DNA of 26,300 bases from a virus: the UHGV virus genome UHGV-0046267; one strand, written 5' to 3'. Of this stretch, positions 1 through 26,103 are shown piece by piece. Both the position numbers and the translations under genes were made by a program. The notes beneath the pieces are model-generated. The model ran no database searches. It saw only the letters and a list, made by a program, of their open reading frames with translations, and was not told the origin of the DNA. Numbering within the stretch: the first letter of the stretch is position 1; each line of letters opens with the position of its first letter.

Positions 1-49
1 AAAATTGTTATTCAGTATCACCCTTTAAGCCGTTTCAGGCTATATAAAA

Positions 50-1054
50 TTAATCCCCCGTGGACACTGCGTGGACACTCACGCCACCTTTCAGCGGATT
101 AAGGGCCACCGCATCCTGCAGGTAATCCGGTGCAAAATGTGCATATGCCATTGTTTGCTGAATGGTTGCGTGGCCAAGAATCTTCTGAAGCGCAATAATG
201 TTTCCTCCGTTCATCACAAAATGGCTGGCGAACGTATGCCGCAGCACATGTGCAGCCTGGCCTTTTGGTAAATCGGGCTTAACTCTTTTCAGCGCCAAGC
301 AGAATTCCCGGTACTTCACCTCAAACAAGCCGCCTGTTTCTCTGGTTTTGATCGCCTCACAAACTGCCTGCGAAATTGGCACTGTTCTCTTTCGGCCATT
401 TTTGGTTTCAAGAAACGTTACACGGTTATGAACTATCTGTTCACCACGAAGCTTACAAGCTTCACTCCAGCGCGCCCCTGTGCTTAAACACAAAAGCGCA
501 ACACGCCAGTAGTCGCCCTCCAGTGTATCGAGCAATAGCGCTACTTCCTTCTGGGACAGGAAAGCCATTTCTCGCGGGGATACATAAAGAATGGAGATCC
601 CCCTTACCGGATGTTCTGCATCCCAAAGGCCTATTCTTTTCAGAACAGTAAACATGCCGGATAGTCGGTTCATGTACCTGTTAGCAGATGACGGTTTCAA
701 TCCAGCAGCTATCTTTTGAGAACGCCACGCGATAATTTTCAGCTTATCAAGATCCACAGCCTGCATATCAGCGCCAAGCTCATTGATTATGTTGCACAGT
801 TGTTTTCGGTCTTCTTCCGCCTTACGCCTGTGTTGACCGTGATACATCCACCACAACTCAAGCAAATCATTTAGCGTTCGGCGATCACGGTAGCCCTGTA
901 TATATTCCCGCTTTTCAGCGTTCGCCATGATGTAGCGTTCAGTGGCCACCGCTACCGATTTTTTGTCAAATACCTTACGCACGCGCTTTCCCTTGCGTCC
1001 GTTCGGCCTGATGTCCAGCAAATAACGACCATCTTCGAGCTTCTTAATTGACAT
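50..1054 (-). CDS. int: Tyrosine integrase, P2 Int-like. The ORF track extends to 1069 (TTG); the ATG at 1054 preceded by GGAGGG is the more likely start.
   Basis: Translation has the phage-integrase C-terminal catalytic region (ARWSE...HVLRHTFASH...LGHATIQQTMAYAH) and sits at the prophage edge next to the repressor, as in P2. Confidence 0.9.
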   Translation of the reverse strand: MSIKKLEDGRYLLDIRPNGRKGKRVRKVFDKKSVAVATERYIMANAEKREYIQGYRDRRTLNDLLELWWMYHGQHRRKAEEDRKQLCNIINELGADMQAVDLDKLKIIAWRSQKIAAGLKPSSANRYMNRLSGMFTVLKRIGLWDAEHPVRGISILYVSPREMAFLSQKEVALLLDTLEGDYWRVALLCLSTGARWSEACKLRGEQIVHNRVTFLETKNGRKRTVPISQAVCEAIKTRETGGLFEVKYREFCLALKRVKPDLPKGQAAHVLRHTFASHFVMNGGNIIALQKILGHATIQQTMAYAHFAPDYLQDAVALNPLKGGVSVHAVSTGD

Positions 1055-1150
1055 AGCGAAGCCCTCCAATGAACCGCCCTACAATTTCTCCAGCCTCTTT
1101 CCAGCAATAATCAGACCAGACAAAGAGCAGGTCTAACCAGTTTTCTGGCC

Positions 1151-1489
1151 TTAGCGGGGTGATTTTTGGTTTGTTTCGGTTGAAACCTGATCGCCCTCCG
1201 AATCGAAGAAGCCATCAAGAGAGAGAGGCGGAGCAATCTGCCCCGTCGCAGCATTAGTTTGATTAAACATCACCCAATCCGAATACTTCCGAAAACGAGG
1301 ATGATTCAAAATCAGGAGTAACGTTTCTCCAGGTATCATTCTTCCCAATATTTCATAATTTTTGAGATTGTATTGAGATACCCCTGTCACCTCTTCCATC
1401 TCTCTACGTGACAATCCCTCTGCCTCTCGAATCAGGCGAAGTTTTTCTCCAAGGCTTGATTTATGGATCATATGTGATCTAAACTCCAT
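1151..1489 (-). CDS. Immunity repressor, P2 C-like. An alternative ATG at 1471 (MIHKSS...) would give 106 aa.
   Basis: About 100 aa, divergent from cox and directly upstream of int. The WVMFNQT...GQIAP pattern resembles the P2 C family from memory. Confidence 0.7.
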   Translation of the reverse strand: MEFRSHMIHKSSLGEKLRLIREAEGLSRREMEEVTGVSQYNLKNYEILGRMIPGETLLLILNHPRFRKYSDWVMFNQTNAATGQIAPPLSLDGFFDSEGDQVSTETNQKSPR

Positions 1490-1586
1490 GCTATTGGGTT
1501 ACATGTGACACAAAACATTCAAATAGCCAAAATAAGCCTATATAAGCCATTTTGGGCCATTTGGACGAATTAAGGAGATTACCACA
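1490..1586. promoter_or_regulatory. Repressor/cox switch region with candidate early promoter (TTCAAA 1518-1523, 17 bp spacer, TATAAG 1541-1546) and direct repeats of ATAAGCC at 1532-1538 and 1542-1548.
   Basis: 97 bp between divergent regulators. The hexamers and the 7-bp repeats spaced 10 bp apart are read directly from the sequence; P2-type operators are direct repeats around the early promoter. Confidence 0.45.
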
Positions 1587-1874
1587 ATGAGCGAATCAGA
1601 GCTTGAGGGGTTCATTCAGGTAGCACCATATCCACTTGAAGCGGTGCCATATCAACTATTTGCCAAGATGATTGGTCGCAAAGAATCAACCGTCAGAACC
1701 ATGATTGACGCTGCAAAGTTACCAACGATTGACTTTGTGAAACCAGGTTCAGTGAAGACGCGAGCATCAGAAAACTGGGTATATCTGCCAGCATTTAACG
1801 CCGGTATGCGCAAAGCGTTTTTTGATCAGCCGAAAGAACGCCGCGATGCATGGTTGTTGTGGCTGGGGCTTTAA
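1587..1874 (+). CDS. cox: Cox-like excisionase / transcriptional regulator.
   Basis: 95 aa, first gene of the rightward early operon, AAGGAG RBS at 1572-1577. Motifs PYQLFAKMIGR, WVYLPAFN and WLLWLGL match the P2 Cox family as I recall it. Confidence 0.8.
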   Translation: MSESELEGFIQVAPYPLEAVPYQLFAKMIGRKESTVRTMIDAAKLPTIDFVKPGSVKTRASENWVYLPAFNAGMRKAFFDQPKERRDAWLLWLGL

Positions 1875-1880
1875 TCATAA

Positions 1881-2087
1881 ATGACCAGCAATATCACCAG
1901 CGCCATTTTGGACCTTGTATTCCTAGAAGTGGGTGTAATAGCGATTTATCTGCTTAGCAAGCTAACAGGACAAAAAGAACGCTTTATTGTTCTCAACGTT
2001 CATTACCTCGCCGCTTATGCCAGAGGTCTTTTTCCGATCACCATTGGTGCGGTGCTCATGGCGTTTGTTATTTGGCTCATCGGGTAG
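1881..2087 (+). CDS. Small hydrophobic protein, predicted two transmembrane segments, unknown function.
   Basis: 68 aa ORF tightly packed between cox and the next early gene; two long hydrophobic stretches. Confidence 0.5.
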   Translation: MTSNITSAILDLVFLEVGVIAIYLLSKLTGQKERFIVLNVHYLAAYARGLFPITIGAVLMAFVIWLIG

Positions 2088-2098
2088 AGGCACGAAAA

Positions 2099-2557
2099 AT
2101 GAATAAGCAACAGCGAAATGGCAAGCCCCATAACACGGGATTTCGTCGCAATTACTTTGAAAATGGGCGTTATGCCGGGGAAGTAAATAGGTACGGAGTT
2201 TTTGACATGAAGCAACAGTGCAATTCTTCACAGCAACGCTTCCGCAACAGGGAGGAACGCCATGCTAACCGTTTCGCTACCAGTACATCGCGTAGCAACT
2301 ATCGCTACAGCCTGAGCGAAACACACGCAACACCGGATGGCCACGCTGTAAAACAAATCGGCGAGCATACCTGGCTGATTGAGAAAGCTGGAATCGTGGT
2401 CCACAAATGCCCACGCAATCCGTTTACCGGAAACCGCATTTTTGCATTGAGCTGCGGCGACAATCACTTCGGACAGGATTTCACATTATACGAAGCACTT
2501 CGCACGGTTGATCGTCTGCTTCGCGGGCAAAGTTTTATTAAACAGGCTGATTTATAA
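2099..2557 (+). CDS. Early-operon protein in the position of P2 gene B (replication accessory); functional assignment is tentative.
   Basis: ORF track gives 2072 (TTG); ATG at 2099 follows a GAGG RBS and avoids overlap. Assignment rests on position and size (about 152 aa) only. Confidence 0.4.
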   Translation: MNKQQRNGKPHNTGFRRNYFENGRYAGEVNRYGVFDMKQQCNSSQQRFRNREERHANRFATSTSRSNYRYSLSETHATPDGHAVKQIGEHTWLIEKAGIVVHKCPRNPFTGNRIFALSCGDNHFGQDFTLYEALRTVDRLLRGQSFIKQADL

Positions 2558-2567
2558 TAGGTGCTTT

Positions 2568-2855
2568 ATGACCAAAGAGCATGCACAAGGTGTATTTATC
2601 CGTTTTATTGATTTTCGCGGTGAACTGTTATTACGCGCATCCGCTATTGATGGAGTGGCTCCGGCGGGTAAAAACGGAGCCGACGAAGCCACTTACGTTT
2701 ATCTGAACGGCACGCGACTGCTTGTGGAACTTCCGTACCAGACCGTACGAGAAATCATTAGTGAAGCTGAAAAGGCACGCCTGGCTAATGGCGATGAACC
2801 CTATATCGAAATTATTTGTATGGATTCAGAAACTGAAATTCAGAAAGCAGATTAA
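2568..2855 (+). CDS. Hypothetical early protein.
   Basis: In-operon ORF; ATG at 2568 (MTKEHAQG...) chosen over the upstream alternative start in the track. Confidence 0.5.
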   Translation: MTKEHAQGVFIRFIDFRGELLLRASAIDGVAPAGKNGADEATYVYLNGTRLLVELPYQTVREIISEAEKARLANGDEPYIEIICMDSETEIQKAD

Positions 2856-2866
2856 AGGGCGTTGCG

Positions 2867-3109
2867 ATGGGCAAAGAATATAAAACTCTCATTAACAAAG
2901 CACTTGAGCGTTTTTATTTTCGCTTAAGTGCATCAGGCGCTCATGCTGAACGTGCAGCCCGTGACTCATTGACCAGGGCAATCCGGAGTCTGTATGACGT
3001 GGCTTTTTACGCTGATGATCTGGATGCACTTAACGAACTTTCCGGGCTGATCTGTGCCGCAGAATGCGGGGAACATATTGAACCGTATAAGCTGGGGAAT
3101 ATTGCATGA
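2867..3109 (+). CDS. Hypothetical early protein.
   Basis: 80 aa ORF in the early operon, same strand, short spacing from the previous gene. Confidence 0.5.
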   Translation: MGKEYKTLINKALERFYFRLSASGAHAERAARDSLTRAIRSLYDVAFYADDLDALNELSGLICAAECGEHIEPYKLGNIA

Positions 3110-3219
3110 GTATATTTATCTCATGGCTTGTTCTGATTATTTCGGTGGCCTGCGCTATTGGGATTATGCGAATTATTCATTCAATAAAAAAGATTGAACG
3201 CTTTTTCACTGGCGAATAA
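3106..3219 (+). CDS. Possible 37-aa hydrophobic micropeptide (MSIFISWLVLIISVACAIGIMRIIHSIKKIERFFTGE), translationally coupled.
   Basis: ATG at 3106 overlaps the upstream stop (ATGA). I translated it by hand; it is too short for the ORF track. One predicted transmembrane helix followed by a basic tail. Confidence 0.3.
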   Translation: MSIFISWLVLIISVACAIGIMRIIHSIKKIERFFTGE

Positions 3220-3305
3220 CAGAGCAAATAAAACCACAGATTAAATAAGAAAATGTAAAAACAATCCGCATTCGCGGAGGTATTCGCACACGCCAAGGAG
3301 GCGTA

Positions 3306-3509
3306 ATGGCAATTAAGCATTTTCCTGTCGTTCGTTTTACCTCCAGAGGGCGTGAATACGAAGTCGACGAACGCCTGATTACCACAATCGACAAACACCG
3401 TTCAGAAAAGGATGCACATCACATCTATCTCACTGACGGCACTTACTTCTGCGCCACGAATGTGGTGCGGGTGAACCTTATCCGACAGGTACAGGAGTCA
3501 CGCAAATGA
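3306..3509 (+). CDS. Hypothetical early protein.
   Basis: 67 aa ORF with a strong AAGGAGG RBS just upstream. Confidence 0.55.
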   Translation: MAIKHFPVVRFTSRGREYEVDERLITTIDKHRSEKDAHHIYLTDGTYFCATNVVRVNLIRQVQESRK

Positions 3510-3751
3510 CCATTCTGGACTATATCGCCGCCAATCCGGGGTGTAGCGGTGGAGAAATCGCCGCAGCACTGAATACCCCAACCACAGCCATTAATGCGGA
3601 GTTACGCCGACTCTGGCGCAGCGGTTCAGTCATAAGAAAAGAGCGCAAAACAGGCGGTCGCTTTTCTTACCAGATAAACCCGATGCCGTTCGGGTGCGGC
3701 AATCCACTTACCAACATGTTTAACCAGCTACTGAAGGAAGCCAGAGCATGA
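3506..3751 (+). CDS. Small putative winged-helix DNA-binding protein.
   Basis: 81 aa, overlapping start/stop with neighbours. The N-terminal segment (DYIAANPGCSGGEIAAALNTPTTAINAELRRLWRSG) has an HTH/winged-helix look; family not identified. Confidence 0.45.
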   Translation: MTILDYIAANPGCSGGEIAAALNTPTTAINAELRRLWRSGSVIRKERKTGGRFSYQINPMPFGCGNPLTNMFNQLLKEARA

Positions 3752-4047
3752 GCGCCATCAACCACCAGGAATTACGCGAACTGGCGACTGACCTGCAACG
3801 AATGGCAACGCCTCAAAAATTACTGGCGTTTCGCGCAATGCTCTCGCCGTCTGCTGTGTTGGCGCTGCTGGATGAGCTGGAGCACGCCAGAACCACACCT
3901 CTCGCCATTCGCCTGACGCTCCGTCATGAAATCGAGGATTTCTGCGCGACGTTGGAGGCACCAGGCGAACCGGAAACGCCGGAAGCAATACAGAAAGAGC
4001 TGCTGCAACGCATTGACAAGGTTTTTGATTTTTTTCTGAACCACTAA
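3748..4047 (+). CDS. Hypothetical early protein.
   Basis: 99 aa ORF, ATGA-type overlap with the upstream gene. Confidence 0.5.
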   Translation: MSAINHQELRELATDLQRMATPQKLLAFRAMLSPSAVLALLDELEHARTTPLAIRLTLRHEIEDFCATLEAPGEPETPEAIQKELLQRIDKVFDFFLNH

Positions 4048-4169
4048 GAAACCAGAACATGCACACACAAAAAAACCGCTTGCCATGCCGCAATCAGTCA
4101 GGTTACATTTCCGCTGCACCTCACAAAACGGGTGCCGGGTTTCGCAGCCTGCTGACTACACAAGCGCAC

Positions 4170-4192
4170 AACCGCGCCAGCGGTTTTTTTGT
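4170..4192 (+). terminator. Candidate intrinsic terminator (stem ACCGC/GCGGT, then seven T).
   Basis: Hairpin and T-run read directly at 4170-4190 inside a roughly 320-bp stretch with no convincing ORF. The stem is short, so strength is uncertain. Confidence 0.35.
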
Positions 4193-4369
4193 GCGTACTG
4201 TATTGCCACGTTTTTTTCGCGTCAGAATTATGGCGGGGCGTACGGGGCCGACTTCGGTCGGGCCGGGTTCTTGTGTAGCCGGTACTGCGAACCTCGTACG
4301 TCTCGCCACCCACAGTTTCGCAGCTCTGGATGGTGAGTTTTCACAACTTACTACACAAGGGGCCACACC

Positions 4370-4600
4370 ATGGCAAACCGCAAACCACACCGCGCTATCG
4401 CGGAGCGTCGTCACATCCAGACTGAAATCAACCGCAGACTTTCCCGCGCATCACGCGTCGCGCAAATCATGCACATCAATATGTTGCATGAGCGCAGCCA
4501 CGCACTATCAAACATTTATTCCGCCTCTGTTTTCAGCTATCTGGCGGATGATCTGCACGAGCTTCAACAGCTCATCCAGCAGCAAAACAAACTCCATTAA
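4370..4600 (+). CDS. Hypothetical protein.
   Basis: 76 aa ORF upstream of gpA; coding status not certain. Confidence 0.4.
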   Translation: MANRKPHRAIAERRHIQTEINRRLSRASRVAQIMHINMLHERSHALSNIYSASVFSYLADDLHELQQLIQQQNKLH

Positions 4601-5044: not shown

Positions 5045-7810
5045 ATGACGGCAGAGTACATCAGGGACTGGCAACAACCGCGCCACGCAGTGGGGCGTGA
5101 AGGAACGGGGATCCCCGCTCCTGAATCCGCGCTTTCCTCCTGGCTGGATGCCTACCGGGCAGAGAACGAGCGCCGCCAGGAAATGGCTGATGCGGCGTTC
5201 TCCGCCACGCCGCTGGGCAACCTGATTAATAAAAGCCTGGACGCACAGGAAAAACAGGACAAAACCATCACACTGGCAGGAGACGCCAGAAAACAGGCAC
5301 GCGGCGCGGTGGATGAAGCCATGGCCTCGCTGCGCCTGCTGCCGTCCTATCTGCGCGATCCGCTTATTCGCCACCTCTCCTTCCTGCGCAAAAAACAGGA
5401 AGCCGATCGCCGGAAAGGAAAAAAGAGCTGGCAGGCTGAACGCTACGCGTGCGGAACCCTGCGCAAAATATTCGAACGTCTGGACCGCACCGACCACCGC
5501 TGGCTGACACCGGGTTATCGCTCCCTTGCCGGACGCGAACGCCTGGACGATTTGCTTTACCTGCCGCAGCTCAACAAACACCAGATACAGACGCTGGCCA
5601 CCATGACGGCGGCGATGTTCAGCAGCACCTTCGAAAAACTCTGCGATGGCTTTGGCGCGACTGATGGCGAGCTGACCATGGATGTAACGCTGAAGGCGTA
5701 TCAGATGCTGGCCCGCATGGCGTTACACCTGCACGCCATGCCTCCGCATTATGACGTACTGACAACAGACAAAGACCGGAGGAACGAACCGGACACGGAG
5801 CTGCTGCCGGGCGCAATCCTTCGCCTGACCTGTGCGGAATGGTGGAAACGCAAACTGTGGCTGTTACGTTGCGAGTGGAGAGAAGAACAACTCCGCGCCG
5901 CCTGTCTGGTTTCCAGAAAAACATCACCCTATCTGAGCCAGGACGCGTTAAGCGAGTTTCGCGCACAGCGCGAGAAAACACGCGATTTCCTGAAAAGTTT
6001 CATGCTGGAAAACGAAGACGGGTTCACGATTGATCTCGAGACAGTGTATTACGCGGGAGTAAGTAACCCGGTTCACCGTAAGGCAGAAATGATGGCCACC
6101 ATGAAGGGGCTGGAACTTCTGGCCGAAGCCCGTGGCGACAAAGCGGTGTTTCTGACTGTCACCTGCCCGTCAAAATACCACGCCACAACAGAGAACGGTC
6201 ATCCGAATCCCAAATGGAACGGGGCCACCATGCGCGACTCCAGCGATTACCTGGTTAACACGTTTTTTGCAGCGGTCCGCAAGAAACTGAACCGCGATGG
6301 CCTGCGCTGGTATGGCATCCGCACGGTGGAGCCTCACCATGACGGCACCGTGCACTGGCATATGATGGTCTTTGCTCATCCGGAAGAAATCGACAGCATT
6401 GTGGCCATCACCCGCGATATTGCCATTCAGGAAGACCGCCACGAGCTGGGCGATGACATAACTCCGCGTTTTAAGGCGGAGTACGTAGACGGCTCAAAAG
6501 GCACACCAACCAGCTATATCGCGACCTACATCGGAAAAAACCTGGACAGCCGCGCCGTGGATGGCATCGACCCGAAAACGGGCAAGCCACGCGTTGACCA
6601 CGAAACCGGAAAATCAATGGCAGAGAGCGTGGAACGCGCCATCGGCTGGGCGCGCCTTCACCGGGTCCGCCAGTTCCAGTTCTTTGGTATCCCCTCCCGT
6701 CAGGTGTGGCGTGAACTGCGTCGCCTTGCCAGCCAGATGGCACGCAACCCGGAAGGCCCGCAACGGCTGAAGGATGACGCAATGGACTCGGTTCTTGCTG
6801 CCGCTGATGCCGGATGTTTTGCCACCTACATAGAGAAACAGGGCGGCGTACTTGTTCCACGCAAAGACTACCTGATTCGCACCGCCTACGACCTCGCAGA
6901 TGAGCTGAACGATTACGGCGAACAGAGCGTACAGATTTACGGGATCTGGTCACCACTCATCGGGGAATCCTCCCGTGTGTGCACGCACCCGGATAACTGG
7001 AAGCTGGTAAGACGTAAACCTGAAGCAGAAGACATCGCCCGCGAAAATGGTTTTGACCTTCAGGGCGGCCCTGCCGCCCCTTGGACTCGTGGCAATAACT
7101 GTCCCCGTGTACAGGAAACGGACAACAACGGGACAGAACAGCCGGAAGAACGGCCAGCACCGTGGCCGCAGCTCCCTGACGGCGTTGAAGTGAACGAATG
7201 GATGCGCTCACTGAAACGGCACGAACGCCGGGCGCTGATGCGTGCGCTTCGTGACAAACAGGCAAAAAACAGCAGTGATGAAATGCAGAGCTGGACACAG
7301 AGCCGCAAACAGCAGCGGCCTTTGCCTGATAACCACGAATTACTCGCTAAAGAATGGCGGGAGTCTGCTGAATCTCTCGGCCTGCATATCGGTGAACAAC
7401 AGATGCAGCACCTGTTACGGGGCGGCAGTCTGTACGTTGACGGCAGCATCATTGCACCGCAGAGATTTGAAATTGTACGCAAACCAGATACCCGACCGGA
7501 CAGCCGAATCACGCAGCTCTGGCAGCGCCTGAGCCGTAATCACGGCGTAAACAGCACGGAAATCCGCCATAACCCGGTTTCCAGCTATCTGAAACAGCTC
7601 GGGGCATCAGACCCAGAAGCCGCTGCACGCCTGGCATCCACAATTCAGCAGGACCAGAACACCATGAAAACTCCCGTTACCGTGCTTTCTGACATGCTGC
7701 GCGCCATCCGTGACGCAGAACACGCACAGAGAATCAATGAAACCACTGAACGCGCACGTCACAAGGCGAGTCTGTTGCAGGACAAAGGCAATAGCGAGAA
7801 GAAAAAATAA
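5045..7810 (+). CDS. Replication initiation endonuclease, P2 gpA family (rolling-circle HUH nickase).
   Basis: 921 aa. HUH-type motif VHWHMMVF and a tyrosine motif YIATYIGK are present. Position after the early operon matches P2 gene A. Confidence 0.9.
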   Translation: MTAEYIRDWQQPRHAVGREGTGIPAPESALSSWLDAYRAENERRQEMADAAFSATPLGNLINKSLDAQEKQDKTITLAGDARKQARGAVDEAMASLRLLPSYLRDPLIRHLSFLRKKQEADRRKGKKSWQAERYACGTLRKIFERLDRTDHRWLTPGYRSLAGRERLDDLLYLPQLNKHQIQTLATMTAAMFSSTFEKLCDGFGATDGELTMDVTLKAYQMLARMALHLHAMPPHYDVLTTDKDRRNEPDTELLPGAILRLTCAEWWKRKLWLLRCEWREEQLRAACLVSRKTSPYLSQDALSEFRAQREKTRDFLKSFMLENEDGFTIDLETVYYAGVSNPVHRKAEMMATMKGLELLAEARGDKAVFLTVTCPSKYHATTENGHPNPKWNGATMRDSSDYLVNTFFAAVRKKLNRDGLRWYGIRTVEPHHDGTVHWHMMVFAHPEEIDSIVAITRDIAIQEDRHELGDDITPRFKAEYVDGSKGTPTSYIATYIGKNLDSRAVDGIDPKTGKPRVDHETGKSMAESVERAIGWARLHRVRQFQFFGIPSRQVWRELRRLASQMARNPEGPQRLKDDAMDSVLAAADAGCFATYIEKQGGVLVPRKDYLIRTAYDLADELNDYGEQSVQIYGIWSPLIGESSRVCTHPDNWKLVRRKPEAEDIARENGFDLQGGPAAPWTRGNNCPRVQETDNNGTEQPEERPAPWPQLPDGVEVNEWMRSLKRHERRALMRALRDKQAKNSSDEMQSWTQSRKQQRPLPDNHELLAKEWRESAESLGLHIGEQQMQHLLRGGSLYVDGSIIAPQRFEIVRKPDTRPDSRITQLWQRLSRNHGVNSTEIRHNPVSSYLKQLGASDPEAAARLASTIQQDQNTMKTPVTVLSDMLRAIRDAEHAQRINETTERARHKASLLQDKGNSEKKK

Positions 7811-7910
7811 CCAAGAAAGAAATCATCAATTGTATGAAGGTAGAGTTTAGACATGGTAAGGACGTTCCATGAGACACACTGTAATTTCATATAGTATTCC
7901 TCTTCCCTGT

Positions 7911-7939
7911 TTGACAAAAAAGTGCAATACTATAAATAG
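7911..7939 (+). promoter_or_regulatory. Candidate sigma70-type promoter for the accessory operon (TTGACA at 7911-7916; TATAAAT at 7931-7937).
   Basis: Consensus -35 hexamer and AT-rich -10-like element read in the 180-bp AT-rich intergenic region; spacer length is suboptimal (14-16 bp depending on register). Confidence 0.35.
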
Positions 7940-7990
7940 TCCAGTTAAATGCTTTTTCAATTCACTTAAAATCAAGAGGTTACAGTTAAG

Positions 7991-9112
7991 ATGGGCGACT
8001 TAGGTGGTATTCAGTCAGATTTAGCCCAACTAGTTAGACTGGTAATAGCTGAACAGTATGATGACGTTCGGTTATATGTCGCTCGCTTGGTGCGTAAATA
8101 TCGGGAAACTATGCCTGCTCTATCCGAGCAGCTTGATCTTTATCTACGAAATAAACCGCAAAAGCCTGCACAAAGCCTGCGTAAGGTTACCGCACCAAAA
8201 CAAGCGCTGCCTCAAACCATGCCTGTGGACGAGGAGTCAAGGCTTACCTTGCTTAAAGCACCAAATGAAAAGATTGTGAGCAAACCTCTACTGTCCAGTC
8301 AGATAGAAGACTCACTGGATCAAATTATTCTTGAGCGGAAGCACATCGATCGCCTCAAGGCTCTCGGCTTACAACCAACACGCTCTGCCATTTTTGTTGG
8401 CCCTCCGGGTGTAGGTAAAACACTTACGGCAAGCTGGTTAGCTCAGAAATTAGGGGTTCCTTTTTACGTTCTTGATTTAACGGCAGTAATGAGCAGCTAT
8501 CTGGGCAAAAGCGGAAATAACCTTCGGGCAGCTCTAGATTTTGCGAAGAAAGGGCCGTGCGTTCTTCTGTTAGATGAAATTGATTCAATCGCCAAAAAGA
8601 GAAGTGATGATTCTGATGTTGGAGAATTAAAAAGACTTGTTACCGTGATACTCCAGGAGGTTGACGAATGGCCGTCTTCTAGTTTGCTACTTGCTGCAAC
8701 TAACTTCGCTGAGTTGATTGATCCAGCACTATGGAGACGTTTTGATTTAGTGCTCAATTTTGAGAAGCCAGATAGCGAAAGTATTAAAGAAGCAATTAAA
8801 CGCTTTTCAGGTCCCGACTACGCGATTTTTGCACGTTGGATAGATCTACTGGCTATTATGTTCAAAAATGAATCTTTTAGTAATATTGAGCGTTCTATCA
8901 ACAAATTCCGACGTTCGGTCGCTTTAGGTATTTCCTCAGATGAAGAGTTGATTGGGTCGTTCATTAAAGATGGTTTATCAGAATTAGACAGGAATGAACG
9001 TAAAGAAATTGCAGTTACTCTAAAAAGAAATTCTAAATTATCCCAGCATGCCATATCAGACTTAACCGGAGTCAGTAGGGATACAATTAGAAAATACAGT
9101 CAAAAAATGTAA
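7991..9112 (+). CDS. AAA+ ATPase, first gene of the accessory cassette (IetA-like by architecture).
   Basis: 373 aa. Walker A GPPGVGKT and Walker B VLLLDEID present. AAGAGG RBS upstream. AT-rich relative to the phage backbone. C-terminus has an HTH-like stretch (LSQHAISDLTGVSRDTIRKY). Confidence 0.8.
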   Translation: MGDLGGIQSDLAQLVRLVIAEQYDDVRLYVARLVRKYRETMPALSEQLDLYLRNKPQKPAQSLRKVTAPKQALPQTMPVDEESRLTLLKAPNEKIVSKPLLSSQIEDSLDQIILERKHIDRLKALGLQPTRSAIFVGPPGVGKTLTASWLAQKLGVPFYVLDLTAVMSSYLGKSGNNLRAALDFAKKGPCVLLLDEIDSIAKKRSDDSDVGELKRLVTVILQEVDEWPSSSLLLAATNFAELIDPALWRRFDLVLNFEKPDSESIKEAIKRFSGPDYAIFARWIDLLAIMFKNESFSNIERSINKFRRSVALGISSDEELIGSFIKDGLSELDRNERKEIAVTLKRNSKLSQHAISDLTGVSRDTIRKYSQKM

Positions 9113-9135
9113 TACAGCATAGATAAGGAGTATGT

Positions 9136-11361
9136 ATGGCGAAAACTAATTTTCTGATTGGACGCGGCGAATTATTAACCAGCGATATTCCTGGTCCTAA
9201 AAGAGTGCCCGGAAAAGCTGAGGTTTATTCTCTTTACGAATCGAAACAACGTTTATTGCCGCAAATTGCATCTACTATAGAAAATTTTGATGATTTACCC
9301 AGTCAGGCATGTCCTTATGATTATGCTGTGGCTAAGTTGACGTTGAATCCGAGCTATATTGCACGCTCTTTTTTTCCTGCAAAAATGCTTAAGTCTACCG
9401 GGTTAACGTCTATTGGCAGCAGGACGGTAAAAATTACGCCTCAAAGCTGGAAGCGAAAAGTTACTGTGTCAGAAGTAACTACGACACAAATGTTTGTTGC
9501 TGGTAAAAGAGAATCCTTCAAAGAGTTACCTCATTGGGTGTCAGGACTCAAAGAGTTTTCTGACGAAGCGATTGATTTTGCACGCATAGAACGGTTCGAT
9601 GCCTATTTACCCGAAGAGCGTATTATTACCATTGGTGAGCAGGATTCTTCGTATTTTGAGGTTGGTGTTCATTTACTGCCAGATAATGAACAAGACTTGG
9701 TTCAGCAACAATTTGTTCAGTTTGCATCAAATTTGAACATCAAAGTACATACTTCATTAGCTTTTACCGCTGGTACATTATGGTTCGTGCCAATCCAGGC
9801 CGATAGAATTACTATTAGTAAGCTTGCGAAATTTACATTTGTACGAGTAATAAGACCGGTTCCAAGATTGCGTGGGATTAGACCAATACAAAGGAACTAC
9901 GGTCCTTTAGCTCAGTGTAAATTGCCTGCTGAGGGCCCCGTATCTTCAGAAATAAAAGTTGCGATTCTTGATGGTGGTTTACCATCAGAGCACGCTATAT
10001 CGCCATGGTTAAAATCCTATAGAGTTTTGGACGATCATGCAGAGGATGATCCAGACGGTTTAGAGCATGGTTTAGCTGTGTCTTCAGCCTTTTTATTTGG
10101 ACCAATAAGTAATAAATCGGAAGCGAAAAGACCATACTCTTATATTGATAACTTAAGAGTTTTGGACAACAAGACCTGCCAAGAAGATCCGCTGGAACTA
10201 TATCGAACTTTGGGCTTTATTGAAGAGGTATTGTTGTCTCGCCAGTATCAGTTTATCAATCTAAGTTTAGGTCCAGACCTACCAATTGAAGATACGGAAG
10301 TTCATGCATGGACTTCCGTTATTGATGATTTGTTAAGTGATGGTGAAACATTAATGACTGTTGCTGTTGGCAACAATGGAGAAATGGATCGCAAGTCTGG
10401 TAATGCAAGAATTCAAGTACCAGCCGATTGCGTTAATGCTCTTGCTGTTGGTGCTTGTGATACAGTTAATGATACGGAATGGAAACGAGCACCATATAGC
10501 GCCATTGGGCCAGGCAGAAGTCCTGGCGTGATGAAACCGGATTTAGTTGCGTTTGGTGGTGACACAGACGAGTACTTTCATGTTTTAGGTAAAGGTAAGA
10601 AGCCTGTAATCATACCCCAGCTAGGAACAAGCTTTGCCTCTCCTTACGCCTTACGAGCAGCTGTTGGTGTTCGGGCAATTTTAGGGAACGATTTGAGCCT
10701 ACTAGCAATCAAAGCTTTGTTAATTCATGCGTCAAAACAGCTTGATCATCCTTGTACAGAAGTTGGCTGGGGAAAACTGCCTGAAGACTTGAACGACATT
10801 ATAGTCAGCCCTGATGGTGTTGCCCGTATCGTCTACCAAGGTGAATTGAAACCAGGAAAATACTTACGCGCTTCTCTTCCAATACCTGAAGGTGGCTTGA
10901 AAGGTAGAATAAACTTAGCGGCAACTTTCTGTTATGCAACAACCACTGATCCACAAGACCCAGCTTCCTATACAAAAGCTGGTTTGGAAGTGACATTCCG
11001 GCCAAATGATTCAAAAATCAAAGACGGAAAACAAAATGCTGAAACCAAGGGATTCTTTGAACTGGCCAAATATTCAACTGAAAGTGAGCGACGTTCTGAC
11101 ATGGGCAAATGGGAGACCGTCTTACATAATTCGAAGAACATGCTAGGTTCAACTCTAAAAAATCCTGTATTTGACATTCATTATAACGCTCGTGAGGCCG
11201 GTGCAAGCATAGCCAGCCATAAGGCAGAAAAAATCAAGTATGCTCTTATAATTACCATTAAGGCATCAAAGCACCAAGACCTGTATAACGAAATTTTACG
11301 TACTTATAATCAGGTGCTCGTGCCAATTCAACCGCAAACATCAATTCCTATTCGTTCGTAA
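9136..11361 (+). CDS. Subtilisin-like serine peptidase, S8 family, second gene of the cassette (IetS-like by architecture).
   Basis: 741 aa, 23 bp downstream of the ATPase with an AAGGAG RBS. Catalytic triad motifs in canonical order: Asp (VAILDGG), His (HGLAVSS), Ser (GTSFASP). Extra N- and C-terminal regions of unknown function. Confidence 0.85.
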   Translation: MAKTNFLIGRGELLTSDIPGPKRVPGKAEVYSLYESKQRLLPQIASTIENFDDLPSQACPYDYAVAKLTLNPSYIARSFFPAKMLKSTGLTSIGSRTVKITPQSWKRKVTVSEVTTTQMFVAGKRESFKELPHWVSGLKEFSDEAIDFARIERFDAYLPEERIITIGEQDSSYFEVGVHLLPDNEQDLVQQQFVQFASNLNIKVHTSLAFTAGTLWFVPIQADRITISKLAKFTFVRVIRPVPRLRGIRPIQRNYGPLAQCKLPAEGPVSSEIKVAILDGGLPSEHAISPWLKSYRVLDDHAEDDPDGLEHGLAVSSAFLFGPISNKSEAKRPYSYIDNLRVLDNKTCQEDPLELYRTLGFIEEVLLSRQYQFINLSLGPDLPIEDTEVHAWTSVIDDLLSDGETLMTVAVGNNGEMDRKSGNARIQVPADCVNALAVGACDTVNDTEWKRAPYSAIGPGRSPGVMKPDLVAFGGDTDEYFHVLGKGKKPVIIPQLGTSFASPYALRAAVGVRAILGNDLSLLAIKALLIHASKQLDHPCTEVGWGKLPEDLNDIIVSPDGVARIVYQGELKPGKYLRASLPIPEGGLKGRINLAATFCYATTTDPQDPASYTKAGLEVTFRPNDSKIKDGKQNAETKGFFELAKYSTESERRSDMGKWETVLHNSKNMLGSTLKNPVFDIHYNAREAGASIASHKAEKIKYALIITIKASKHQDLYNEILRTYNQVLVPIQPQTSIPIRS

Positions 11362-11376
11362 TCCTTCAAGACATAA

Positions 11377-11405
11377 TGCCCCTCAATTTGAGGGGCATTT
11401 CTTTG
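11377..11405 (+). terminator. Intrinsic terminator closing the accessory operon.
   Basis: Perfect hairpin ATGCCCCTCAA / TTGAGGGGCAT followed by a T-rich tract, 16 bp after the peptidase stop. Confidence 0.7.
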
Positions 11406-11823
11406 CACAAAAGTGCACAAATTTGCACAATTTTTTTGAACAACTTTTTACCCTTCCGGCCCGCATGGCGGCTGGATCCGTCAAGGATCCGTGCGTGCAC
11501 AAAAAAACGCGTTTTTTCTGCGCGCAGGTGACGGGGGAACAGCCCGCGTTTCAGGGGGTAAATAGCATCCCCTGAACGATGTCGCAGCGACACAACAGAA
11601 TGGCTGTATTTCTCACGCTGAGCGTGAAAAAGACGTGAGGGCTTTTGATTTGATGGGGTGAAAGGTAAGGCCGTCAAAATCGCACTGAGACGGCGAGAAC
11701 ATGCAGTCAACGCGGTGGGATTGCGTAAGAGTCTGACTGTCGATGATGGCAATCAGCAGGAAAGCATCGTGAAATTATCTGACTGATACAGGAGCTGGAG
11801 AGTCGGGGGGGGGAAATTTTTTT
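11406..11823. other. Repeat- and palindrome-rich non-coding region, candidate cos/packaging region.
   Basis: No credible ORF. Contains three TGCACAA repeats (about 11403-11430), a GGATCCGT direct repeat, and a 16-bp palindrome AAAAAACGCGTTTTTT (11502-11517). In P2 the cos site lies between the old/tin region and gene Q. Confidence 0.35.
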
Positions 11824-11918
11824 NNNNNNNNNNNNNNNNNNNNNNNNNNNNNNNNNNNNNNNNNNNNNNNNNNNNNNNNNNNNNNNNNNNNNNNNNNNNN
11901 NNNNNNNNNNNNNNNNNN
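11824..11918. other. Assembly gap (95 N).
   Basis: N-run flanked on both sides by the same AAATTTTTT string and by a G homopolymer. Confidence 0.9.
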
Positions 11919-11961: not shown

Positions 11962-13008
11962 TCAGGATGTGGGCTGGGTGTCTAACAGTGCGTAAGGGTT
12001 AAAGCGGATCACCTCTTCGCCAAGCCAGTCATTGATGTGCTTCATGGCCTCCATGACGGGCATCAGCTCGTTAATTGCGTAAACCCGTGCGGCCTTCTCC
12101 ACATCACCAAACGCACTTTTTTCGCCCGGCATCGCCCCCATCAGTTGCGGCGGAACGCGGTGCGCAGCCAGCACATCATCACGGGATGCCGCCTTAACAT
12201 TCATGAACTCATCCTTTGCGGTGATCTGCTGGAACGGCAAAATTTGCACCCCCTCTTTGCCCCCGTTGGGCGCATGGATGAGCACGTTTTTAAACGCACC
12301 ACCACCACGTGCCCCCTGTAACGTTTCTTTCAGGGAGTCCATGCTTTCGCGGTTTACCTGCGCTGCTCCGATGTAGATGATGCACCCGGCGTGGGATCCA
12401 TTGTCGTAATACAGTTTTCTGAACATGTCCGCCGAATGAGACAGGCTGGCCGAGAGTAATGCGCCAAGATATTCCGGCATGCCGTAAATTTCCTGGTTAA
12501 TGTCCGGATTCATCAGGTGGCACACTTTGCCAGGGCGAAACTGAAACGCGTCCTTGCCATCCTGCACATACCACCATGATTCAAGATCGCTTCCGCGTCG
12601 CATGTATTTCGCCAGGGCGTGCCGTAATTTAAGCGGTTCGCCGAGCATATTGCTTCGAAGCTCAAGGAATGCGTTACCGAACACAAACCAGTCCAGCGCC
12701 AGCGCCGAGAAATCCTGCCGGGAAAGCAACGGGTGCGGGATGTAGCAACCGAGTAATACATTGCGCTTAAAGTAAAGCGCAGACTGATGCCAGGACGTTT
12801 GCCGGGCAGCTCTTGCCAGACCGTACCAGTCCACCGGGGTTTCATACCACCGCCCGTTATCAGCACAGTACATATTGTCCAGCAGGTCATGCCCGGTCAG
12901 GCGATAAGGACCATCAAATGTGAATGCACTGAGCGATGATTCTTTCCTGAGCGCATCAGCGAGATCAATGCGTGAACTCATGCGCACTTTTTTATTTTTT
13001 CTGCTCAT
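11962..13008 (-). CDS. Portal protein, P2 gpQ-like.
   Basis: 348 aa, start overlapping the terminase stop, divergent from the capsid genes exactly as Q-P in P2. Confidence 0.85.
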   Translation of the reverse strand: MSRKNKKVRMSSRIDLADALRKESSLSAFTFDGPYRLTGHDLLDNMYCADNGRWYETPVDWYGLARAARQTSWHQSALYFKRNVLLGCYIPHPLLSRQDFSALALDWFVFGNAFLELRSNMLGEPLKLRHALAKYMRRGSDLESWWYVQDGKDAFQFRPGKVCHLMNPDINQEIYGMPEYLGALLSASLSHSADMFRKLYYDNGSHAGCIIYIGAAQVNRESMDSLKETLQGARGGGAFKNVLIHAPNGGKEGVQILPFQQITAKDEFMNVKAASRDDVLAAHRVPPQLMGAMPGEKSAFGDVEKAARVYAINELMPVMEAMKHINDWLGEEVIRFNPYALLDTQPTS

Positions 13009-16857: not shown

Positions 16858-16915
16858 NNNNNNNNNNNNNNNNNNNNNNNNNNNNNNNNNNNNNNNNNNN
16901 NNNNNNNNNNNNNNN
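16858..16915. other. Assembly gap (58 N) with probable artefactual homopolymer sequence on its right flank.
   Basis: CCGCCTG is present on both sides of the N-run; CACCCCGGGGGGGGCACCCCCCCC follows the gap. Confidence 0.85.
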
Positions 16916-23258: not shown

Positions 23259-25008
23259 ATGAGTACCACAACACGAAAATTTAAAACCGTTATCACCGAT
23301 ACGGGTGCAAAAAAATTAGCGCAGGCAGCCGCGCCAGATGGTAAGCCTGTCCGCCTGACTCATATGGCCGTGGGCGACGGTGGCGGTACATTGCCCACAC
23401 CTGACAGTAAGCAGACCCGTCTGGTGCATGAGGTGTGGCGACACACTGTTAATCGCGTCATCCTGGACGCAACACATCAGAACCGCATTATTGCAGAGCT
23501 GGTTATTCCTCCAGAAACGGGCGGATTCTGGATCCGGGAAATTGGTGTATTTGATGAGCACGGCGATTTAATCGCGGTGGGCAATACTGCCGAAAGTTAC
23601 AAGCCAGCCGTTGCCGAAGGGTCCGGTCGTGCACAAACATTTCGCACCATTCTGACCGTATCCAGCACTGCCACCGTGGCGCTTACCGTGGATAACACCA
23701 TGGTGATGGCCACAGTGGATTACGTGGATGACAAACTGAAAGAGCATGAACAGTCACGACGTCACCCGGACGCCTCGCTGACCGCAAAAGGCTTTGTCCA
23801 GCTCAGTAGCGCCACCAACAGCACGTCTGAAACATTGGCCGCGACATCGAAAGCGGTTAAGGCGGTAATGGATGAAACAAATAAGAAAGCCCCATTAAAC
23901 AGCCCGGCGCTGACCGGAACGCCAACAACACCAACTGCGCGACAGGGAACGAATAATACCCAAATCGCAAGCACGGCTTTCGTTATGGCTGCGATTGCCG
24001 CCCTTGTAGATTCGTCACCTGATGCACTGAACACGCTGAACGAGCTGGCTGCGGCGTTGGGCAACGACCCGAATTTTGCGACCACCATGACTAACGCGCT
24101 TGCGGGTAAGCAACCGAAAGATGCCACCCTGACGGCGCTGGCCGGGCTTGCTACTGCGGCAGACAGGTTTCCGNNNNNNNNNNNNNNNNNNCAGGTTTCC
24201 GTATTTTACGGGGAATGATGTCGCCAGCCTGGCAACTCTGACAAAAGTCGGGCGGGATATTCTTGCGAAATCGACCGTTGCCGCCGTTATCGAATACCTC
24301 GGTTTACGAGAACTCGGCACAAGCGGGGAGAAAATACCGTTACTCAGTACAGCGAATACCTGGACCAATCGACAAACATTCAGCGGTGGCCTTTCTGGGG
24401 AACTGTCCGGCAATGCCGCTACTGCAACAAAGCTGAAAACAGCACGAAAAATTGCTGGAGTTGGTTTTGATGGTTCTAGCGATATTTCAATTAGTGCCAA
24501 AAATGTCAATGCATTTGCACTCCGACAAACAGGTAATACTGTTAATGGTGATACATCCGTTGGATGGAATTGGGATAGTGGTGCATATAACGCCCTGATT
24601 GGTGGTGCATCTGCATTAATTCTTCACTTTAATATAAATGCTGGTAGCTGTCCTGCCGTACAATTCCGTGTGAATTATAAAAATGGTGGCATTTCCTACA
24701 GGTCGGCTCGTGATGGTTATGGGTTTGAATTAGGTTGGTCAGATTTCTATACCACGACACGAAAACCTTCAGCGGGAGATGTTGGTGCATATACGCGGGC
24801 AGAATGTAACTCAAGGTTTATTACAGGTATTCGCCTTGGCGGTCTGTCATCTGTTCAGACATGGAATGGTCCCGGCTGGTCTGACAGGTCAGGTTATGTC
24901 GTTACGGGTTCAGTTAACGGAAACCGTGATGAATTAATTGATACAACACAGGCAAGGCCAATTCAGTATTGCATTAATGGGACGTGGTATAACGCGGGGA
25001 GTATTTAA
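23259..25008 (+). CDS. Tail fibre protein (gpH-like), interrupted by an assembly gap. Conserved N-terminal part followed by a divergent, AT-richer C-terminal receptor-binding part.
   Basis: Two track ORFs (23259-24218 and 24148-25008) join across the N-run if the flanking duplicate is collapsed (…AADRFPYFTGND…). C-terminus ends INGTWYNAGSI. Confidence 0.8.
24174..24191. other. Assembly gap (18 N) inside the tail fibre gene.
   Basis: CAGGTTTCCG is duplicated on both sides of the N-run; removing one copy restores the reading frame. Confidence 0.85.
24287..24312. other. Candidate DNA-invertase crossover site (gix/cix/pix-like) inside the tail fibre gene.
   Basis: TTATCGAATACCTCGGTTTACGAGAA matches the Mu gix sequence as I recall it (TTATCCAAAACCTCGGTTTACAGGAA) at about 21 of 26 positions. 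It sits at the boundary between the conserved and variable parts of the fibre. Confidence 0.5.
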
Positions 25009-25010
25009 CG

Positions 25011-25544: not shown

Positions 25545-25545
25545 G

Positions 25546-25572
25546 AGAAGGCCCGATATTGGGCCTTAATTT
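25546..25572 (+). terminator. Hairpin terminator between the two convergent tail fibre assembly genes.
   Basis: Stem AAGGCCC / GGGCCTT with loop GATATT, followed by AATTTTTA. Confidence 0.55.
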
Positions 25573-26100: not shown

Positions 26101-26103
26101 AAT

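Follow-up and report, generated by a model that had tools for sequence, protein, structure and literature searches.

IetAS is an anti-phage system that was reportedly described by Gao et al. in 2020. Its core is a two-gene operon encoding an AAA+ ATPase, IetA, and an S8 protease, IetS, the latter with a three-part architecture. Anti-phage activity has been reported for IetAS variants other than the one considered here, and the protease is needed for it. The ietAS of B. cereus is an abortive-infection system for which SPbeta yosG is the trigger (bioRxiv 2022.08.27.505566). In ietHAS (Liu-DS4; NAR 2026), an IetA + IetS core is joined by an essential third gene, ietH, which encodes a SNF2-type helicase; defence depends on the protease there, and attempts to clone an ietA mutant failed. 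As of 2026, the same study still regarded the IetAS mechanism as unknown (PMC13069673). Similar pairs have been studied for element maintenance rather than phage defence. For example, IetAS of pTiC58 was first described as a plasmid stability/incompatibility toxin-antitoxin pair, according to a passage of PMC13069673 that cites the work, and SgiAT (S026-S025) is found on Salmonella Genomic Island 1 (SGI1). In pairs of this type, toxicity lies with the subtilase and the AAA ATPase serves as antitoxin, as tested in E. coli: the SgiAT protease is lethal to E. coli in <30 min unless neutralised by the ATPase (PMC5006074). SgiAT helps SGI1 to be retained during excision driven by an IncA/C plasmid, and no post-segregational killing was seen when SgiAT was expressed from its own promoter (PMC5006074).

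IetAS systems are also carried by P2-like prophages, in which the gpA-gpQ locus has been shown to be a hotspot for defence systems (Rousset et al. 2022, PMC9122126). The hotspot is heavily enriched for validated defence systems, and plasmid-partition genes are found in about a quarter of its loci (PMC9122126). One ietAS variant is the seventh commonest system there, with 400 loci (Rousset Table S5B, PMC9122126). The window analysed here, a 26,300-nt stretch from virus genome UHGV-0046267, carries another such pair. With a probability of roughly 0.8, the pair is a two-gene IetAS-family cassette that a P2-like (P88/Xuanwuvirus-type) E. coli prophage carries as cargo in its gpA-gpQ variable hotspot. 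Both flanks bear out the initial annotation, which had placed the cassette in the P2 accessory slot. Outside the cassette on the left is the P2-type replication initiator gene A (5045..7810, + strand; 921 aa; Pfam Phage_GPA, 2.5e-131), and outside it on the right is the portal gene Q (11962..13008, − strand; 348 aa; Pfam Phage_portal, 4.4e-18). Furthermore, E. coli 98202 has a locus that is 100% identical, set within a complete P2-like prophage in an order that runs from an integrase through replication endonuclease, AAA, S8 and portal genes to terminase; the flanking genes A and Q are annotated there as “replication endonuclease” and “phage portal protein”. Positions 11400-11810 of the window are conserved backbone of P88-like phages. 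A search for a P2- or 186-type 19-nt cos site with up to 3 mismatches matched none, and positions 11824-11918 are a run of N.

The cassette is simple in layout. Its ORFs at 7991-9112 and 9136-11361 are the sole long ORFs of the region, both on the + strand. The first, ietA (7991..9112), encodes a 373-aa AAA+ ATPase and putative antitoxin; the second, ietS (9136..11361), encodes a 741-aa S8 subtilase and putative toxin/effector. The intergenic spacer (9113..9135, + strand) is 23 bp and contains the ietS RBS, AAGGAG (9125-9130), 5 nt from the ATG, while the ietA RBS, AAGAGG (7974-7979), is 11 nt from its ATG. All of these coordinates agree with the initial description of two co-oriented genes 23 bp apart, each with its own RBS. 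The genes form a single operon, with one conserved promoter region at the 5' side and one terminator at the 3' side. The cassette is also AT-richer than its flanks, as had been noted: its GC content is 41.3%, whereas the remainder of the window has 53.4% and gene A, upstream of it, 57.2%. This low GC content, and the occurrence of the same two-gene module outside P2-like prophages, indicate that the cassette was acquired separately, as proposed.

How does the pair compare with the described systems? Profile searches uphold the proposal that an ATPase paired with a subtilase is IetA/IetS. The best matches are defence-specific IetA and IetS models, and Pfam AAA and Peptidase_S8 are also matched. 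Specifically, the PADLOC profiles match near full length: IetA matches PDLC02196 at 9.2e-78 (aa 9-372 of 373, profile positions 5-370 of 374), and IetS matches PDLC02197 at 2.9e-51 (aa 36-726 of 741, profile positions 38-733 of 749), a span that covers the three-part architecture of IetS. The best NCBIfam matches are IteA_antiphage (NF042959; 3.8e-66) and IteS_antiphage (NF042956; 6e-39), with scores far below the equivalog cut-offs (223.7 vs 510 bits for IetA; 133.9 vs 900 bits for IetS). The IetA of the ietAS named by Rousset et al., at 253.1 bits, likewise falls below the 510-bit cut-off, so these equivalog models are narrow. Judged by these scores, the window's pair lies outside the narrow NCBIfam IteA/IteS subfamily, in a different subfamily from the Gao et al. 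seed, with its catalytic motifs intact.

The other P2-hotspot ietAS shares with the window its prophage family, its slot, both protein families and an IetA that ends in an HTH-like “SNRKIAELVGVSHPTIANKL” segment, but its protease gene comes first, whereas the ATPase gene comes first in the window. Identity between the two is 43% for IetA and 33% for IetS (first 400 aa). IetA is ~32-37% identical to IetA of Agrobacterium/Rhizobium plasmids. In gene order, the window's cassette resembles SgiAT and pTiC58 IetAS, which are also ATPase-first operons with their own promoter and terminator on a mobile element. Unlike ietHAS, it has no helicase gene, being bounded directly by gpA on one side and by its terminator and phage backbone on the other. 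The experimentally studied ietAS of ECOR52, which alone gave limited protection only, was considered as a possible match; its cloning primers do not match the window, so it is a different variant. A defence function for the window's subfamily is suggested by family membership and location.

The initial observation, and the identification with IetAS and the hotspot, are correct but not new, because the same gene pair at the same locus has already been catalogued. Rousset et al. entered the window's variant separately from the common one: their Table S5A lists “AAA/HTH_50 + Peptidase_S8” with WP_000502619, which is the IetA accession of the identical E. coli 98202 locus (PMC9122126). Both protein families are also present in PHROGs. 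Among the matches listed from parts of Rousset Table S5B and of the Wu et al. PADLOC table, the window's exact variant was not found. As IetAS is a named system and the P2 gpA-gpQ slot a published hotspot (PMC9122126), the locus adds little as a discovery.

IetA is a classical-clade AAA+ ATPase, as first noted, with intact Walker A (GPPGVGKT, aa 137-144) and Walker B (LLLDEID, aa 192-198) motifs and a Pfam AAA match at 2.6e-30. An N-terminal three-helix bundle (aa 3-53) and a disordered linker (57-100) precede the AAA core (103-256), which is followed by a lid (262-329) and a C-terminal helix-turn-helix (334-372), where there are weak Pfam HTH_11 and HTH_23 matches (aa 339-369). Core residues include K143 of Walker A, D195/E196 of Walker B, the sensor-1 residue N238 and R249/R250. 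Across 35 homologues, the catalytic residues and the recognition helix of the helix-turn-helix are invariant. By sequence, the nearest solved structures are Cdc48/p97/VAT (~1e-45), and a search of a copy of the PDB for IetA and IetS relatives yielded p97-type ATPases and generic subtilisins only. The AlphaFold2 (AF2) model of IetA has a mean pLDDT of 75, and its best Foldseek matches are p97 D2, FIGL-1, Mpa and FtsH. By sequence and by fold, IetA is nearest to substrate-processing AAA+ ATPases of the p97/Cdc48/FtsH type. Many homologues have Leu in place of Y170, the aromatic residue of pore loop 1, so substrate threading by IetA is not assured.

The description of the second gene product as a 741-aa protein with an S8 triad also holds. 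The motifs VAILDGG (aa 275-281), HGLAVSS (311-317) and GTSFASP (497-503) supply D279, H311 and S499, all intact, and Pfam Peptidase_S8 matches aa 271-546 at 2.5e-19. D279, H311 and N413 align with subtilisin D32, H64 and N155, and the triad is invariant in 46 IetS homologues, with N413 invariant as well in the alignment. The catalytic domain (aa 271-546) is preceded by a family-specific tandem alpha/beta domain (~31-242) and a conserved Arg/Pro-rich linker (243-270), and is followed by a beta-rich domain (~555-735). No signal peptide was seen in the N-terminal sequence, and IetS is predicted to be cytoplasmic. The AF2 model, built from 46 homologues that are all at least 65% identical, is confident for the N-terminal domain, moderate for the C-terminal domain and poor for the S8 core (pLDDT <50), too poor to read the geometry of the active site or the docking of a propeptide from it. 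Both terminal domains have weak Foldseek matches (TM-scores ≤0.35). The best fold match, at a TM-score of ≤0.28, is ProN-Tk-SP (3afg, E 1.8e-6), a propeptide-subtilisin-jelly-roll protease. Indeed, Tk-SP subtilases have an N-terminal alpha/beta domain, an S8 core and a C-terminal beta-rich domain in the same order as IetS. However, Tk-SP is secreted and matures by self-cleavage, whereas IetS lacks a signal peptide, its N-terminal domain is doubled and it is paired with a dedicated AAA+ ATPase. The N-terminal domain is the most variable part of IetS (52%-56% identity, vs 76% for the S8 core) and its occurrence is confined to the N-terminus of S8 proteins of ~725-766 aa. The idea that it is a promiscuous sensor fused to other effectors was rejected because its matches are all S8 proteins, whole or fragmentary.

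The cassette leader (7868..7990, + strand) is where homology with the Salmonella and Serratia cassettes begins. The initial annotation described a promoter-like element before ietA. Such an element is indeed present, as TTGACA-18-AATAGT at 7911-7940 with 10 of 12 consensus matches, but it does not stand as a functional promoter: the region contains 7 promoter-like matches, compared with 8.0 ± 3.4 in shuffled sequences, and the TTGACA at 7911 is not conserved among homologous cassettes. As a −35 element, this TTGACA was also rejected because it is just 6 nt 5' of a conserved TG. That TG belongs to an extended −10-like sequence, TGcAATACT (7923-7931), which is followed by TAGTCC (7937-7942). The two were kept in all 10 cassettes compared, which come from various genomic contexts, with one- or two-base variants in 2 of them. 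TAGTCC, which is probably the start-site region, has its first base exactly 54 nt 5' of the ATG in 7 of the 10 cassettes. The cassette has a conserved promoter region of its own and is an autonomous module. The leader also contains an inverted repeat, TATAGTATTCCTCTT / AAGTGCAATACTATA (7890-7904 / 7920-7934), that may serve as an operator; the repeat, TATAGTATT/AATACTATA, is limited to the enteric members of the cassettes compared. A search for an operator common to all cassettes returned the −10-like sequence and TAGTCC as the only general elements, and no inverted copy of TAGTCC was present.

At the other end of the operon, an intrinsic terminator (11375..11406, + strand) marks the right end of the cassette. 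It consists of a G+C-rich hairpin (11375-11399) with an 11-bp stem, AUGCCCCUCAA / UUGAGGGGCAU, and a 3-nt loop, followed by UUUCUUUG. The clean hairpin of the initial annotation is a strong fold (dG −19.4 kcal/mol; z −4.84 vs shuffled sequences, with 0 of 200 shuffles folding as well), and was overlooked by a simple terminator scan because its U-tract is interrupted. The P2-slot cassettes of Salmonella, Serratia and Klebsiella have a hairpin of different stem sequence at the equivalent position, and past it the phage backbone common to them returns (TGCACAA repeats).

What might the pair do? By analogy with the toxin-antitoxin pairs described above, IetS may be a toxin that is restrained by IetA and released upon infection. 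The operon would be transcribed from its own promoter and end at its own terminator. IetS, as a cytoplasmic subtilase with an intact Asp-His-Ser triad, would be the toxic effector, and IetA, as a hexameric classical AAA+ ATPase, would spend ATP to keep it harmless. IetA probably acts on the family-specific N-terminal tandem alpha/beta domain of IetS, which would have a propeptide/ACT-type fold, and its C-terminal helix-turn-helix probably also represses the operon. A superinfecting phage would express a trigger protein or disable IetA, freeing IetS to cleave essential cell or phage proteins, such that growth stops before the phage cycle is completed (abortive infection). The lysogen population and the resident prophage would thereby be protected. 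For the window's subfamily, the restraint of IetS, the role of the helix-turn-helix and operator, the trigger and the substrate are what we infer. A different mechanism, which we consider improbable, is that this ATPase-first, helix-turn-helix-bearing subfamily does not behave as a simple toxin-antitoxin pair. IetA would be an AAA+ remodeller bound to DNA; its C-terminal helix-turn-helix would repress the operon and also detect events on DNA such as invading phage replication complexes, and the fast-evolving N-terminal tandem domain of IetS would be a handle by which IetA holds the protease or, by unfolding the handle, sets it free. If true, the sensing of phage would lead straight to activation of a cytoplasmic, zymogen-like subtilase, and IetS would cut a specific substrate rather than carry out indiscriminate proteolysis.

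Defence is not the only role that such a pair could have. It might mainly be an addiction or stabilisation module, a toxin-antitoxin pair by which cells are punished for losing the prophage or its excised circle, or by which competing mobile elements are excluded. This would fit the original description of pTiC58 IetAS in terms of plasmid stability and incompatibility, as cited in that passage of PMC13069673, and the contribution of SgiAT to SGI1 retention during IncA/C-driven excision (PMC5006074). It would also fit the many kinds of mobile element that carry the cassette, and the plasmid-partition genes of the P2 hotspot, which indicate that its cargo is not all defensive (PMC9122126). Moreover, the matched cassette of one E. 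coli genome contains an IS5-family element and has two separate S8 peptidase features annotated, as might be expected for a costly toxin. Nevertheless, we consider it unlikely that addiction is the main role, given that SgiAT expressed from its own promoter caused no post-segregational killing (PMC5006074), that related IetAS systems lower phage infection and that the slot is so enriched for validated defence systems (PMC9122126). The two roles are not mutually exclusive. A role in phage or host physiology without toxicity or defence, with a regulatory protease and a chaperone acting in lysogeny or induction, is very unlikely. RefSeq gives the proteins the generic names “AAA family ATPase” and “S8 family peptidase”, PHROGs lists both families as “unknown function”, and the nearest non-Iet profile and structure matches are FtsH and proteasomal ATPases, which belong to housekeeping AAA+/protease machines; all of this would be compatible with physiology. 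However, the top profiles are the full-length, defence-specific IetA and IetS models, and most P2-like phages lack the cassette, which is carried by 44 of 5,426 E. coli genomes and has no near-identical match in the phage collection. It is also AT-rich foreign cargo that is found outside phages. A role as a morphogenetic protease is rejected by this patchy distribution and by the occurrence outside phages, and P2 already has gpO as its morphogenesis scaffold and protease gene.

For IetAS-family defence, the locus is of practical value as a short cassette of 3.5 kb that occurs naturally in E. coli and brings its own promoter and terminator. Being compact, E. coli-native and conserved at ≥65% identity across gamma- and beta-proteobacteria, it is a convenient model for the mechanism of IetAS. 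The conserved promoter element, the candidate operator and the near-invariant helix-turn-helix offer experimental handles, as do the N-terminal domain of IetS, which is exclusive to IetS and its most variable part, and the conserved Arg/Pro-rich linker. Relatives are available in a range of contexts. P2-like prophages of Serratia, Salmonella and Klebsiella have the A-then-S pair in the same slot, and a Laribacter prophage has it in a different one. In Nitrosomonas and Burkholderia, the pair lies beside transposase-like genes, and in Ferrovum it adjoins other defence genes, AbiEii and HipA.

The identity of the two proteins is settled, as far as sequence can settle it, by the profile searches that the initial annotation proposed when it suggested an IetA/IetS pair; we regard these searches (PADLOC and Pfam, with NCBIfam and PHROGs in addition) as decisive. 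PADLOC assigns the first protein to IetA (9.2e-78, aa 9-372) and the second to IetS (2.9e-51, aa 36-726), and Pfam finds AAA in the first (2.6e-30), together with weak HTH matches at its C-terminus, and Peptidase_S8 in the second (2.5e-19, aa 271-546). The top NCBIfam matches are IteA_antiphage at 223.7 bits and IteS_antiphage at 133.9 bits, below the curated equivalog cut-offs of 510 and 900 bits, respectively. This shortfall indicates that the pair belongs to a different subfamily, and does not argue against IetAS membership; a P2-borne protein explicitly named ietAS by Rousset et al. also scores only 253 bits in NCBIfam. Operon layout, full-length profiles, catalytic residues and an IetS-specific domain, which make up every sequence-testable feature of IetAS, all point to the family, and the narrow NCBIfam equivalogs are the only IetAS-related models that the pair falls outside. 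In PHROGs, both proteins have full-length families, phrog_3757 and phrog_3964, labeled “unknown function”.

The features described in the initial annotation were all found where it had placed them. The only long ORFs in the cassette region are ietA (7991-9112, + strand, 373 aa) and ietS (9136-11361, + strand, 741 aa), which are co-oriented, separated by 23 bp, and each preceded by its own Shine-Dalgarno sequence (AAGAGG at 7974-7979 and AAGGAG at 9125-9130, both + strand). The quoted motifs lie at aa 137-144 (GPPGVGKT) and 192-198 (LLLDEID) of IetA, and at aa 275-281 (VAILDGG), 311-317 (HGLAVSS) and 497-503 (GTSFASP) of IetS. The proposed terminator is also well supported: a hairpin at 11375-11399, beginning 13 bases past the ietS stop codon, has an 11-bp G+C-rich stem and a 3-nt loop followed by UUUCUUUG, and folds at −19.4 kcal/mol (z = −4.84; none of 200 shuffled sequences folds equally well). 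The cassette is AT-rich, as claimed, with 41.3% GC versus 53.4% for the remainder of the window and 57.2% for the upstream gene. Because cassettes in the P2 slot all have a terminal hairpin at the same position, with differing stem sequences, and the shared phage backbone restarts 3′ of it, the cassette extends from about 7868 to 11406. Directly 3′ of the terminator, the backbone starts with three spaced copies of TGCACAA (11400-11445; TTGCACAAAAGTGCACAAATTTGCACAATTTTTTTGA). They are conserved in prophages of Salmonella and Klebsiella, and a Serratia prophage retains them in part. A protein may bind to these repeats, close to the packaging region.

The promoter-like element noted upstream of ietA fared less well. 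The match itself is real (TTGACA-18-AATAGT, 7911-7940), but promoter-like matches are not enriched in this region (7 versus 8.0 ± 3.4 in shuffled sequence), and its TTGACA is not kept in related cassettes. A different element, TG-n-(G/A)A(C/T)A(A/C)T, resembles an extended −10 and accompanies the pair in all ten genomic contexts compared. In the window it reads TGcAATACT (7923-7931) and is followed five bases later by TAGTCC (7937-7942). TAGTCC varies by one or two bases in two of the ten cassettes, and in seven its first base lies exactly 54 nt 5′ of the ATG. We read the extended −10-like element and TAGTCC as the real promoter, with a predicted start in or near TAGTCC. An inverted repeat (7890-7904/7920-7934) overlaps the −10-like element in enteric cassettes.

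The AlphaFold2 (AF2) model of IetA (mean pLDDT 75) consists of an N-terminal three-helix bundle (aa 3-53), a disordered linker (aa 57-100) that holds a conserved LPVD(D/E)ESRLxLLK motif, a classical AAA+ core (aa 103-256), a lid (aa 262-329), and a C-terminal helix-turn-helix (helices at aa 334-347, 352-359 and 363-372) whose recognition helix, VSRDTIRK, is unchanged across 35 homologues. Homologues show no variation at Walker A K143, Walker B D195/E196, sensor-1 N238 or R249/R250; pore loop 1 has Y170 in the window and Leu at that position in many homologues. By both sequence and fold, the closest solved relatives are the protein-remodeling ATPases Cdc48/p97/VAT, FIGL-1, Mpa and FtsH. Beyond p97-type ATPases and generic subtilisins, no relative of IetA or IetS with a solved structure was found in the PDB.

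IetS lacks a signal peptide in its N-terminal sequence and has three parts: an N-terminal region (aa ~31-242) confidently predicted to form two beta-alpha-beta-beta-alpha-beta units, the S8 domain, and a beta-rich C-terminal domain. D279, H311, N413 and S499 align with subtilisin D32, H64, N155 and S221, and are unchanged across 46 homologues. Because the S8 catalytic core is poorly modeled, the fold matches are weak; the best is ProN-Tk-SP, a protease made of a propeptide, a subtilisin domain and a jelly roll, and the N-domain alone weakly resembles tandem ACT-like domains. Searching the N-domain alone against 1.84 billion representative proteins returned 557 relatives. The domain is N-terminal in every one, full-length proteins carrying it are 725-766 aa long, and a Pfam scan of ten shorter matches found an S8 domain in seven and any other domain in none. 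Since it is always N-terminal and has been seen with no domain other than S8, the N-domain is a hallmark of IetS rather than a shared sensor module. No other part of IetS varies as much (52%-56% identity for the N-domain, versus 76% for the S8 core). Although it flanks this variable region, the linker to the catalytic domain (aa 243-270, window 9862-9945) is conserved and rich in invariant Arg and Pro (P243, L245, R246, R249, P250, R253, L263, P264 and P268). Candidate roles for this linker are as a site of processing or of recognition by IetA.

The placement in a P2 accessory slot also held up: the upstream gene is a P2-type replication initiator (Phage_GPA, 2.5e-131) and the downstream gene, in the opposite orientation to the cassette, encodes the portal. 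Of 5426 complete E. coli genomes, 43 carry the cassette at ≥99% identity, in every case on the chromosome; among phage collection records it has no near-identity match. In E. coli strain 98202 a 100%-identical cassette lies within a complete P2-like prophage adjoining btuC, in the order integrase, repressor, early genes, replication endonuclease, WP_000502619 (AAA ATPase), WP_001140703 (S8 peptidase), portal, terminase, capsid, lysis, tail. [quoted passage not shown] 2022, PMC9122126). The type of system, the hotspot and the occurrence of this particular pair there have all been published before. A P2- or 186-type cos sequence was not found. The integrase/immunity region of the window (1-4557) is not collinear with the 98202 prophage: 1-2254 has no match and 2255-3753 matches at 94.7%. 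Because the cassette is nevertheless 100% identical, it is carried by mosaic P2-like (P88/Xuanwuvirus-type) prophages that differ in their integration and immunity modules.

Homologues are found in gamma- and beta-proteobacteria (4855 matches for IetA; 2261 for IetS at ≥65% identity). The ATPase-then-protease pair occupies the same gpA-portal slot in P2-like prophages of Serratia, Salmonella and Klebsiella, lies 3′ of tail gene D in a Laribacter prophage, adjoins transposase-like genes in Nitrosomonas and Burkholderia, adjoins AbiEii and HipA in Ferrovum, and is near guaA in Stenotrophomonas. Outside prophages, this subfamily sits behind three or four genes that form a conserved set. In Burkholderia cepacia (locus L007, 127-8223) these genes encode a protein of 661 aa whose match to the rve-family integrases is faint, an AAA_22 protein and one of ~215 aa, and in Nitrosomonas (locus L002, 2265-8217) they encode proteins of 162, 292 and 214 aa. 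Such a set suggests that a transposon-like element carries the pair as cargo. In E. coli E06 (NZ_CM143910.1), an IS5-like ISKpn26 lies inside the cassette-matching region and the annotation there shows two separate S8 peptidase features, suggesting that ietS is interrupted; the insertion possibly inactivates a costly toxin gene.

How might the pair function? No experiments on this subfamily were found in the literature, and the best model is drawn from relatives. The common P2-hotspot ietAS, the seventh most frequent hotspot system (Rousset et al. 2022, PMC9122126), differs in having the protease gene first and in 57%-67% of its sequence (43% identity for IetA and 33% for IetS); IetA homologues from plasmids of Agrobacterium and Rhizobium share ~32%-37% identity with the IetA of the window. 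The SGI1 SgiAT subtilase is lethal to E. coli within 30 min, an effect that its AAA ATPase neutralizes (PMC5006074), and pTiC58 IetAS has been described as a protease-toxin/ATPase-antitoxin pair (PMC13069673). In ietHAS, which unlike the window pair has a helicase, defense depends on protease activity, and cloning of an ietA mutant failed (PMC13069673). Abortive infection is the mode of action of a B. cereus ietAS, which becomes toxic on co-expression of SPbeta yosG and is escaped by mutations among phage replication functions (bioRxiv 2022.08.27.505566). E. coli ECOR52 ietAS gives limited protection alone and synergizes with Zorya II (bioRxiv 2022.08.21.504612); it is a different variant, as the ECOR52 primers have no match to the window pair.

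By analogy, IetA would hold or remodel IetS at the expense of ATP, acting on its N-terminal domain or the conserved 243-270 linker, and may repress the operon by binding a putative operator through its HTH. A phage product would then disable or divert IetA, and the freed IetS would cleave essential proteins, aborting the infection. The main rival is that the pair is chiefly an addiction or stabilization module for the prophage, a role documented in relatives and compatible with the defensive one.

Two other parts of the window deserve mention. The AT-rich tail-fiber region (24148-26300, 41%-47% GC) contains two oppositely oriented fiber assembly genes (25011-25544, + strand; 25573-26100, − strand; Caudo_TAP ~1e-36 each) and a 40-nt inverted repeat (24955-24994/26118-26157) at the ends of the fiber C-terminal coding segments. 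This arrangement is that of invertible host-range segments of the Gin/Cin/Pin type; the window itself contains no invertase gene. There are also three runs of N (11824-11918, 16858-16915 and 24174-24191). The first two are at or just past strong hairpins with odd homopolymer tracts alongside (GGGGGGGGAAATTTTTTT and CACCCCGGGGGGGGCACCCCCCCC, respectively), and at the position of the first the 98202 locus has the hairpin GGGGCATAAATTTTTTATGCCCC only, with 3 bases versus 110 in the window. These runs look like assembly or scaffolding artifacts at hairpins, or masking, rather than biology.
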